Part shown: in pieces, positions 9,001 through 12,000 of the stretch | Layout: each line of letters begins with the position of its first letter | Position numbering within the stretch: the stretch's first letter is position 1 | Source: a virus | UHGV virus genome: UHGV-0072395 | Strand: one strand, 5' to 3' | Length of the DNA: 21,112 nt | Program-made: the position numbers

Positions 9001-12000
9001 CGCCTGATCACTTCCGCCCCTCCGCACAGGGGGATTCACCACAACAGAAATTTAACACCCGACCAGTTCTATTTCAACACAATACGGCTCTGTAGCCGAA
9101 GGTACCCTGGCTGGGTCTAGTGCTGATTGACGGGAATCGAACCGCCAGCACCCTGCTTACAAGGCAGGCACTCTAACTGCTGAGCTAAACCAGCAAATTC
9201 CTGCAACACTCTCACAGTGACTGTGCCCATGCCCTTGGGTTGCTGCCGCATCATTGCCGCTTATAACCGGTGCGCGTGTGGCGTTCGCGCTACCTTACCG
9301 GCATACCCATTTCCTCGTTAACCCTAACCAGCGGTATATCGCAGTTCGGACCTGCGTCTGGCTCTCTTCTCGGAGACTCGGGGCCACATCATGACTGTGG
9401 CTTGCATAGGCGGTCTGACCGCTCTACAGCTTCATTTTCGCCACCCACTCTCGCCAGCGAGCATCCCTACCCTCAGGACTCAGGCGCTGATCGTCAAAAT
9501 GATTAGACAAGGTCAGCGAATCCGGCAGTAACGCCCAGGCAACATAGAATTCGTGGGGCTCAAATTCATCGCCAGCAAACTGATAAGCGCCAACATGATA
9601 GACCTCGCAATCTTCCTCAAGCGCAATAATGTGAGCGATATGCCAGCCATCACAGGGATTCAGGAGGATTACCCAGCGGCCTTCAAGGTCTTTGGTTAGC
9701 TTTTCGCTTGCTGGTCTGAAGATAAGGGTTTCTGTTATCTGCTGGGACATTTCAGGCTCCAGAAACGACAAAAACCCCGCCGGAGCGAGGTTTTGATGAT
9801 TAAGCTGTGTGTCTAAGTGACCACTCTTAACAGGTTACGATAGTTTTTGCGTACGCGTTAGCTTTACTATATGTTTCAATATATGAAATTTCTTGCTCAC
9901 AGTTTCATTACACAGCAAACCATATATAAACTAATAATTTCAAGGTGATATTTATATGAGCGGATTCGCTTGTCAGGAATGCGGAAATGTTATAGACGAC
10001 ATCGAACAGAACTGCGAAGTTTGTGGCACAAGTCCCAATGTCGCAAGAATCGGAAACCAAAATTTCATGGTTGTCAATGCAATCACCGCTCATCTTGAGA
10101 AGGAGAAACTTTTTGATTATACAATTGGTCAGTTGTGGGATCTTACGACTCCAGTTGCTACGGAATTCATCACTAGAATTGAAAAAAAATTCCGACGGAA
10201 AAATAAATTCCATAACTATTTAGTCAAAGACAATCTGCCTAATTCAATACCTACGTTGCTATCAAAATTTAACGCAGGGACAATTATTTTTGAAAGCTTT
10301 TGCCAGACTGTAATGAACAAGCTAAAACTAAACTCTAATAACGAGACAGTTGTTTCGAAATTGGTTGGCGGAACGTTAGTGTTTGTACATTACAAATCTT
10401 TAAATGATGCAGATGATTTAGGAAAATTATTAATAGTAATGGTTGATAAACGTAGTGCCTTCGATTTTGAAGAGGGAAGTTTACAGCCTAAACGTCTTAA
10501 TCCAGTCAATACTGATGCTCTGCGCCAAGCCGCAATGTTTGATCTAACTTTGTTCGATGAAAGTTACCCAGATAACGACGGTCATTCCTATGTCGATTTC
10601 ATCCAAGGTAAATCCCAAAGTGATGTTTTCAAGGATTCGTTAGGCTGTACTCGAGATGTCGATAACAAGCGAAGTATTAATGAAATCTTTCGTGCTATAG
10701 AAGAGTTTGTTTCTTCAAATTCCTTAGGAAGAGCAGTTAGAGAAAATGCAGACATTGCCGTGAGAGATTTTCTTGACATTAAATCTAGAGATACTATTGA
10801 TAAATCTGTTAGCATTGATGAAGTCCAAGTTGTCATTGATAAATGTTTACCAAAAAAATCAAAATGCAAAGGAACTTTCAAAGATTTTGTCTATGAGAAT
10901 GAATTTAAAATAGACGCACAATTTGAACCCACTATATACTCTGCAAAACAGGCACTTACAATAAAGCTGACAGATGAAGACAAAAATTTCGAAATTAAAA
11001 TACTGCGAGGTGCAATTGGGGATGAAAAATCTAACAAACCAGTTATAATAGGCAGTAGAAATAATGAGGTAATCATCCGACTTTCCCCAGACGAATTTAA
11101 TAAGTTAATAAAATATGCAAATGAACAATAGTGATAATTTTGATAGAATCGCTGTTTTAATTTCATCTTCTGATATTACATCAGAAGATGGATTTGTTGT
11201 AATCAAATGCCCACAAGCCTACAATAACCATGAAAAATTAAATATACAATCCTTATTCTCTGGAATCGGCTATCTTAAATCCGATAGAATTTTTGAAGGC
11301 GATAAAGATATCTGGTTGGATAAGAGAGCAAATTTTTGGAGCGATGGACAGTGTCCTTTTTTTTCTAATTTCGAAAACTTTTGGCAACGCGTAAATGGCG
11401 CGGACAAATTACCTGATTATTTTTATATTGTATCTGATAAAATATCCCATTTAGAAGCGAAGGATAATAAAACACTAAATATATTCAACTTGTATTTTAC
11501 CTGGAAACAAATCCTTCTTAATTTATCCGATCATTTCGCGAATGAGTTTTACGTTTTTTTCTTGATGAACGATAAAGGTGGGGATAAAATTGAAATAGAG
11601 TCAACGCTGAACTTCAATCAACTACCAAAAATTGACATGCCTGCTGATAGCCTCAGCATTGCTTACAATCTTATTCAGAAACTTGATTTTGAAGATCTAC
11701 ATAAGTTAGAGCGCCGTTCAGTTATGCGTGCAACTCTTTATGAATTAACAAAATCAATGAATAAGGATAGTAATCTATTAAAACCCCTTATGGAACAAAC
11801 CGTTACATTTAGCAAAAAATATAATGAGCTATATGAAATATATACCAAGCGATTTTCGGTAAATAAACTTCTTAACGAGCTGGATGAAAAAAGCTTAGAG
11901 TTTACATCAAAAATAAATGAATTTATTTCCTCAAGTCAAACAAAAGCACTTACGATACCAGGAGCATTAATTGCAGTAGGTGCGTTAGCCAAGGCCGATG

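Follow-up and report, generated by a model that had tools for sequence, protein, structure and literature searches.

The virus genome UHGV-0072395 was analysed as a stretch of 21,112 nucleotides (nt), referred to here as the window, in which late transcription runs along the minus strand. The gene for the late antiterminator Q is followed on the other strand by a two-gene cassette (9956..12368), whose GC content of about 0.32 differs from that of its flanks (about 0.5). Behind this cassette lies a conserved noncoding block of about 105 nt (9871..9766, minus strand), which is followed by the first late gene and, further on, by the lysis genes. In this work we propose that the block, rather than any sequence beside Q, is the site at which Q would act on late transcription, and that the interval between the two is a place for variable cargo. 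The coordinates of all features are given in Table 1.

Open reading frames and stop positions confirmed that Q is convergent with the cassette and that 20 nt separate the stop codons, as an earlier reading of the sequence alone (the sequence-only reading) had stated. The hairpin with its T-run at 9794 to 9770, the ribosome-binding site and the first minus-strand gene at 9750, all noted in that reading, are likewise present. GC content is 0.34 to 0.35 over 9780..10019, compared with about 0.5 further down the late strand. The AT-rich stretch 9955 to 9796, which had been taken in its entirety as part of the promoter arrangement, is indeed AT-rich; its upstream portion, however, is specific to the cassette and not conserved. 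Identity to relatives that carry other cassettes ends upstream of about 9866 to 9871, and by sequence comparison 9955..9872 is part of the cassette's own 5' region, outside the late unit.

The block accompanies Q whatever the intervening cargo

When the locus was compared with GenBank phages, the match was limited to 9865..9770, shared with two Klebsiella phages at about 90% identity and with unrelated flanks on both sides; in each of the two, a homologous Q is followed by a different convergent cassette, and the match comes after that cassette. A more sensitive search recovered the block from 105 phage records and from 3091 of 5426 complete E. coli genomes, the carriers including Stx2a_1447, Stx1 phages, PA-2, SfII and the K-12 prophage DLP12. 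The order Q, reverse-oriented cargo, block and late genes was observed in every record opened.

The association between block and Q was counted from both ends. A Q-seeded set was composed of 80 IMG/VR loci encoding Q proteins 82 to 99% identical, and 67 of these carried the block on the strand of Q, 654 to 2998 nt downstream. The remaining 13 loci comprised five with a diverged block, seven with too little flanking sequence and one (L042) with no block within about 6 kilobases (kb) of flank, the single such locus of the 80. With the five diverged copies included, the block was present in 72 of the 73 loci with adequate flank. Conversely, 118 loci were collected by the DNA pattern of the block alone, and this Q type was found upstream on the same strand in 95 of the 96 that could be evaluated; the exception had no Q within about 4 kb, and a further 22 loci had less than 3.5 kb of upstream sequence. 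The distance from the Q stop codon to the block, about 2.5 kb in the window, ranges from 614 to 3774 nt in relatives with a Q of the window type. Moreover, the block was the sole conserved noncoding element linked to this Q, and it lay on the strand of Q irrespective of the cargo or late genes adjoining it.

The linkage extends to the sequence of the block itself. In DLP12 and PA-2, a variant block has TTTACGTACGTAAAAAA in its upstream half in place of CTAACGCGTACGCAAAAA, and the downstream half is shared. A search with the TTTACGTACGTAAAAAA variant yielded 120 loci, and a QuuD-type Q, not one of the window type, was located upstream in 101 of 101 evaluable cases. This is the pattern expected of a Q recognition site: a box that changes with the clade of the regulator, adjoined by a constant part that would face the polymerase. 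Alignment with related phages, proposed in the sequence-only reading as the way to a qut-like element, has thereby yielded a clade-specific invariant box, CTAACGCGTACGCAAAAA, as a candidate Q site.

One database hit stands apart from this distribution. The Elizabethkingia phage EKP1 (hit H30; OM284015.1, 33074..33142), attributed to a host of the Bacteroidota, contains a block-like sequence with 81% identity over 68 nt. This hit was unexpected, as the block is otherwise confined to Enterobacteriaceae, and it may reflect a mis-assigned host or contamination.

Q and its proposed target are separated by a cargo slot

The Q protein of the window belongs to a Pfam family (PF06530) that is common to phage 21 Q and E. 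coli QuuD, and it also matches phrog_79 (anti-termination protein Q-like). It is 44% identical to QuuD of DLP12, and its match to the solved Q21 structures 6P18 and 6JNX is weak (E 0.005). Directly behind the gene, the 20-nt gap is taken up by a GC hairpin, and therefore there is no space for a promoter beside Q. In the relatives, the gap between the stop codons of Q and cargo is mostly 7 to 39 nt, and each cassette type has its own hairpin there. Furthermore, the Q-side junctions of L010 to L088 revealed that the last codons of Q vary by cassette type. Since both these codons and the junction hairpin change with the cassette, a recombination border must lie inside the 3' end of Q, and no conserved sequence is available at this junction to serve as a Q site.

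Among the 80 Q-seeded relatives, the interval from Q to the block contained at least 21 gene architectures and 36 protein families, almost all of them antisense to Q. One cassette type matches NsnA / PD-T4-2_A and another PDC-S33, with few defence matches overall; PADLOC gave no match for the cassette of the window. The cassette type of the window (an NA37-like gene plus phrog_5023) recurs in L010, L016, L044 and L045. Two loci are without cargo: in L320 and L322, the stop codon of a QuuD-type Q is 7 nt and 30 nt before the block, respectively, and genes on the late strand, a methylase and a lysozyme-like protein among them, come after the block in L320. These cargo-free loci keep the classical adjacency of Q and pR'. 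It follows that the interval from Q to its proposed site is a slot filled by the cassettes. Other members of the split layout are DLP12 with nmpC, PA-2 with lc, SfII and several Stx phages. Thus, the broken adjacency of Q and pR', presented in the sequence-only reading as a peculiarity of this DNA, is instead the standard arrangement: cargo between Q and its target is the usual layout of this Q family.

Anatomy of the block

The anatomy of the block was derived from 50 unique variants, with position 0 set at the T of TGTTAAGAG (window position 9832, minus strand). The TAnnnT hexamer, which is proposed to be the -10 element of the late promoter, has an information content per position of 9, 9, 3, 3, 4 and 9, a signature of the -10 type. 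Upstream of it, the CTAACGCGTACGCAAAAA box, which does not vary among the window-type variants, is the candidate for the element bound by Q and overlaps a weak -35 sequence, CTAACG, at a spacing of 18 nt. The position of the TA..AAAA tract, further upstream, fits a putative A-tract resembling an UP element. On the downstream side, the near-invariant initial transcribed region (9800..9825), in which a small 5' stem is predicted, probably contains pause and Q-loading signals, or the seed of a small RNA, or both. No Rfam family matched the block RNA.

Two further candidates within the block were rejected. An RNA stem pairing GUUAAG with CUUAAU around the core had one AU-to-GC covarying pair in four sequences, which looks like a single lineage, and its 5' arm lies upstream of the mapped start described below. 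A CRP site annotated in the PA-2 record has a half-site spacing that is off by one, and its right half-site is variable.

At the downstream end, a terminator scan identified a stem at 9794..9771 (minus strand) with 10 pairs and a loop of 4 nt, followed by TGTCGTTTCT. Such terminator-like sites numbered 9 in 6 kb against 5.2 expected, so that one site alone is within chance. Because the scan hits are near chance and there is no consensus promoter, the significance of the unit comes from its conservation and not from motif scans. The predicted leader RNA (9825..9764) folds with -20.7 kcal/mol (z = -3.4 against shuffled sequences). Under a strict rule, a hairpin followed by a U-run was present at the same place in 37 of the 50 unique variants, which use 30 different hairpin sequences; therefore, position and pairing are kept while the sequence drifts.

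Table 1. Features of the Q-to-lysis region of the window, and the blocks of the two cargo-free loci in the coordinates of those loci
Feature	Position	Strand	Evidence or remark
DUF968/HNH gene	13814..12753	minus	Upstream neighbour of Q
Q late antiterminator, 115 aa (amino acids)	12389..12736	minus	PF06530 Phage_antitermQ, E 3e-44
GC hairpin GCCCCATG-tcact-CATGGGGC	12360..12380		Fills the gap between Q stop and cassette stop
Cassette gene 2, 417-aa phrog_5023 protein	11115..12368	+	phrog_5023 match
Cassette gene 1, 391-aa NA37-like nucleoid-associated protein	9956..11131	+	PF04245, phrog_3767
Cassette-specific AT-rich 5' region	9872..9955	+	Promoter-like site 9909..9938 (+), promoter scan
Intergenic stretch, 205 nt			Between cassette and 108-aa gene
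Semi-conserved TA..AAAA tract (TATAGTAA in the window)	9864..9871	minus	Information profile; about -46 to -39 from the predicted start
Invariant box CTAACGCGTACGCAAAAA containing ACGC-N2-ACGC	9844..9861	minus	Invariant in window-type variants; about -36 to -19
Second -10-like hexamer, TATCGT	9842..9837	minus	Overlaps TAACCT
TAnnnT hexamer (TAACCT in the window)	9832..9837	minus	Proposed -10 of the late promoter
Near-invariant stretch TGTTAAGAGTGGTyACTTnGnCACAnnGCTTAA	9832..9800	minus	
Predicted late transcription start, A of TGTTAAGA	9825	minus	By homology to the DLP12 start
Near-invariant 26-nt initial transcribed region AGTGGTCACTTAGACACACAGCTTAA	9800..9825	minus	Alignments A1, A2, A3; common to both Q clades
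Intrinsic terminator, proposed tR'	9766..9794	minus	Stem AAAACCTCGC / GCGGGGTTTT, loop TCCG, U-rich tail
Ribosome-binding site GGAG of the 108-aa late gene	9760..9757	minus	
First late gene past the terminator, 108 aa, phrog_17248	9424..9750	minus	ATG at 9750
tRNA-Thr, anticodon UGU	9120..9194	minus	ARAGORN, Rfam
STnc100-family RNA element	8847..9071	minus	Rfam
Two holins and endolysin	7814..6587	minus	Holin begins at 7814
Block of cargo-free locus L320	9323..9287 (stored coordinates)	minus	
Block of cargo-free locus L322	112..76	minus	

A mapped start in the homologous block of DLP12

In a published Cappable-seq list for E. coli MG1655, four starts on the plus strand fall between nmpC and rzpD (Ettwiller et al. 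2016, PMC4782308). The published start at U00096.2 576,452(+) falls on position 3730 of the DLP12 locus (L008), an A homologous to window position 9825. It is situated exactly 7 nt after the last T of TATGCT (-12..-7), which is preceded at 16 nt by TTTACG. With starts listed at an overall density of about one in 560 nt on each strand, the chance of a start within 1 nt of this place is about 0.5%. Since the DLP12 start lies 7 nt past the homologous hexamer, late transcription in the window is predicted to begin near 9825 and to yield a leader of about 57 nt.

The same prophage carries another start, at about position 3359 (+) of L008, which is strong in the Cappable-seq list (score 90) and is located 7 nt after TATTAT, beside the start codon of nmpC. 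Directed toward the block and the lysis genes, it lies about 370 nt upstream of the weak block start and is possibly the promoter of the DLP12 lysis operon that has been studied in the literature. The DLP12 "SRRz promoter" (Pasqua et al. 2021) was considered as a candidate for the block promoter and rejected: primer -121 of that study is at L008 3254, which places its +1 near 3375, about 350 nt upstream of the block, and it is thus a different promoter. No match was found for the reverse primer of the same study.

The block as the probable late regulatory unit of Q

We consider that 9871..9766 (minus strand) is, with a probability of about 0.8, the late regulatory unit of Q 12736..12389, made up of a sigma-70-type promoter, a Q site, a short leader and a terminator. 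The arrangement of pR', short leader and tR' after the cassette, with the cassette between Q and its target, had been suggested from the sequence alone; comparative evidence now supports it, with its borders redrawn to a putative promoter and Q target at 9871..9826, a start at about 9825 and a terminator at 9794..9766. For this phage, we infer the start, the bases bound by Q, the place of pausing and the Q-dependent read-through. In the absence of Q, RNA polymerase from the block promoter would halt at the terminator 9794..9766. Q produced from the early operon would diffuse to its site and modify the polymerase, which would then pass the block terminator and later ones, such as that of STnc100 at 8877..8858, and read-through would reach the 108-aa open reading frame, the tRNA gene, the holins and the endolysin. 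Because Q would act in trans, 2.5 kb of antisense cargo would leave the circuit intact; for the same reason, adjacency of Q and its unit is usual and not required by the mechanism.

Several observations weigh against this assignment. A consensus scan found no sigma-70 promoter on the minus strand of 9770..9955, its sole hit being the plus-strand site at 9909..9938, and the proposed promoter (CTAACG, 18 nt, TAACCT) agrees with 6 of 12 consensus positions. A position-weight scan of the block variants gave no consistent promoter register either and, since the motif and weight-matrix scans are inconsistent, the promoter call is based on conservation and on the K-12 start. A register like that of phage 21, with AAAAnT as the -10 element and TAnnnT as the pause element, fits the sequence about equally well but not the mapped start; either register would place the promoter and the Q site within 9871..9826, behind the cassette. 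Downstream of the predicted start, no conserved pause hexamer with A at position 2 and T at position 6 was found, and only some variants have TACTTT in the initial transcribed region. The DLP12 start is weak, with a relative score of 1.7 compared with 90 for the nearest strong start, and it sits in a divergent variant with a better -35 sequence. Its mapping on L008 depends, moreover, on the offset between U00096.2 and NC_000913.3 coordinates, which we take to be +777; this value was checked against a single neighbour, the strong start at 576,081, which it places 7 nt after TATTAT. About a quarter of the unique variants are without a clear hairpin and U-run under the strict rule. Finally, the K-12 Term-seq list (Adams et al. 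2021) has no 3' end at the DLP12 terminator, although a 47-nt RNA is easily lost.

The weak K-12 start and the unlisted 3' end would also agree with a different account, which we regard as improbable, in which the block is only a terminator or insulator, perhaps also a small RNA gene, that protects the late genes against early read-through or transcripts from the cassette region, and the Q-responsive promoter lies downstream, for example at 9077..9049 or in the 7815..8700 tract. The promoter-like site of STnc100 is far nearer to consensus than any site in the block; as in the lambda 6S unit, it precedes a structured RNA (about 200 nt) and a terminator. STnc100 is, however, not tied to the type of Q, being located behind stx1B in a phage with a window-type Q and behind a Q82-type Q in the Klebsiella phage KO-TP1, whereas the block is tied to its Q clade in both directions, directly follows Q in loci with an empty slot and, in SfII, is the sole element between cassette and holin. 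The explanation to which we give the least credence moves the promoter and the Q site in the opposite direction, into the 3' end of Q, with an antisense run through the cassette and with the block reduced to tR' and a conserved leader. Although the block terminator faces correctly to stop transcripts from the 3' end of Q, and the 3' half of Q is AT-rich, the variable last codons and junction described above leave no conserved Q-site sequence there, and the hairpin directly behind Q, which is particular to each cassette, would stop such transcripts. Furthermore, the box that covaries with the Q clade is in the block and not in Q, and in the K-12 homologue a primary start lies within the block.

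It also appears very unlikely, if slightly less so than a promoter within Q, that the block serves the cassette, either as a divergent control region or as a landing site for the recombination of variable cargo. The block adjoins the 5' end of every cassette, with the TA..AAAA tract at the junction, and the slot is a recombination hotspot; but the terminator is oriented for the late strand (in the E. coli variants, the other strand has only 3 T after the hairpin), the block sequence is kept in loci without a cassette, the cassettes are unrelated and each has its own AT-rich upstream region, and it is on the late strand that the K-12 start was mapped. That the block also forms one border of the recombination slot would not conflict with our main proposal.

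The proposal that the block is the late unit of Q can be taken further, in a bolder version for which we see an outside chance. Q21-type proteins resemble region 4 of sigma. Since the block has no usable -35 sequence and has a Q-specific box at -36..-19, Q may recruit or position the polymerase in place of -35 recognition and then antiterminate. If this were true, late transcription would be doubly dependent on Q, which would explain both the weak start in K-12 and the lack of an abundant leader RNA. Combined with it, and covered by the same low estimate, is the idea that the interval from Q to its target is a dedicated cargo slot, nearly always filled with mostly uncharacterised, probably anti-phage genes.

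Comparison with known late regulatory units

The phage 21 unit (GenBank OL657228; about 85 nt, after Q) comprises a -35 sequence TTGACA, two 8-bp (base pair) Q-binding repeats in the spacer, a weak -10 sequence AACACT and the start, and continues with a pause element TAAGCT(G), a terminator from +3, two tRNA genes and a holin. The block resembles it in being compact (85 to 105 nt), in its association with a PF06530 Q and in having a conserved box in the -35/-10 region, a weak hexamer of the -10 type (AACACT in phage 21, TAACCT here) and a short terminated leader (46 nt compared with about 57 nt), with tRNA and then lysis genes after tR'. In contrast, the phage 21 unit begins 7 nt past the Q stop codon, whereas 2.5 kb of antisense cargo intervenes here; the Q protein of the window has 115 aa and is only distantly similar to the 162-aa protein of phage 21 (E 0.005); the candidate box is ACGC-N2-ACGC and not two 8-bp repeats of the ATTGAGCA type; and the -35 sequence is poor (CTAACG at 18 nt), with an A-tract at the place of an UP element and no pause element that could be placed cleanly. 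A likeness between the core of the block and the reverse complement of the phage 21 leader was judged to be a coincidence.

Further close parallels are DLP12 (qsr') and PA-2, in which Q is followed by convergent porin cargo (nmpC or lc), a homologous block and late genes (essD and lysis genes). The downstream half of the DLP12 block is near-identical to that of the window; the differences are the cargo (a porin rather than an NA37-like pair), the upstream half (TTTACGTACGTAAAAAA), the better -35 sequence (TTTACG at 16 nt) and a gap of 190 nt between Q and cargo. Q of DLP12 reportedly acts on the essD promoter region. The reversed placement of lc and nmpC, with Q on one side and the lysis genes of PA-2 and DLP12 on the other, is already known from the GenBank records; within the limits of our search, the literature described neither the block as a family-wide unit nor a hypervariable cargo slot between Q and its target. 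What we regard as the more interesting by-product of the analysis is the generalisation suggested by these comparisons, a split circuit whose cargo slot is nearly always filled.

A promoter placed closely before a terminator, with a short RNA as by-product, is also found in lambda 6S, in StxS of Q933 phages (PMC7547250) and in the isrJ-like RNA. Unlike the block, these units adjoin Q and have leaders of 75 to 258 nt, and the block RNA, unlike those short RNAs, is not seen as an abundant 3' end in K-12. Separately, the 6S leader of lambda (L089, about 858..872) contains TGGTCACTTCGAC, a 13-nt identity to the core of variants L011 and L021, and the lambda pause region AACGATGGGTTAATTCG resembles AAGAGTGGTTACTTCG; this likeness may be remote homology or coincidence.

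With respect to its cargo, the interval resembles the hotspots of P2 and P4, which have fixed conserved borders around variable, AT-rich and often defence-like genes. Unlike them, it is embedded in a regulatory circuit, with an antiterminator gene on one side and the proposed DNA target on the other, and its cargo is almost always antisense to the neighbouring phage genes.

The STnc100 element and other features of the late strand

Downstream of the block, the STnc100 element (RF02076) was identified at 9071..8847 with 90.1 bits, compared with a gathering score of 47. It has a promoter-like site at 9077..9049 (TTGAAA, 17 nt, TAAATT, preceded by TG) and its own terminator at 8877..8858, which is a further terminator for late transcription to cross before the holin at 7814. 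STnc100 was also found behind stx1B in the Stx1 phage L005 and behind the Q82-type Q of KO-TP1, and in Stx2 phages it has been reported downstream of stx2B (PMC12370729). As a late leader, STnc100 was ruled out, since it occurs behind different Q families and stx genes. Between the STnc100 element and the lysis genes, a very AT-rich noncoding tract of about 450 nt (approximately 8050..8500), with no open reading frame of note, lies upstream of the holin genes.

In Klebsiella phage KO-TP1 (L003), an isrJ match with an Rfam score of 63 bits is located at 3242..3318 (minus strand), 16 nt past the stop codon of the Q82-type Q, so that an isrJ-like RNA lies between this Q and STnc100. The Salmonella small RNA IsrJ may be the short pR'-tR' transcript of the Q82-type family. 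The annotation of phage 434, consulted as a guide to the Q82-type pR', marks no late promoter.

Implications

The assignment of the block would locate the late-gene switch of a large and poorly characterised Q family whose carriers include DLP12, which is ubiquitous in E. coli, the Shigella phage SfII, Klebsiella prophages and some Stx1 and Stx2 phages. In a study of pR' in Stx phages, the reference pR' site was not found in several of its phages (PMC6266700). For Stx phages of the type described here, the block would couple toxin production to induction. In genome annotation, it should not be taken for granted that a late promoter adjoins Q. Furthermore, the slot has precise bounds, the 3' end of Q and the block, and can be mined for its content, which amounts to 36 protein families in 80 close relatives.

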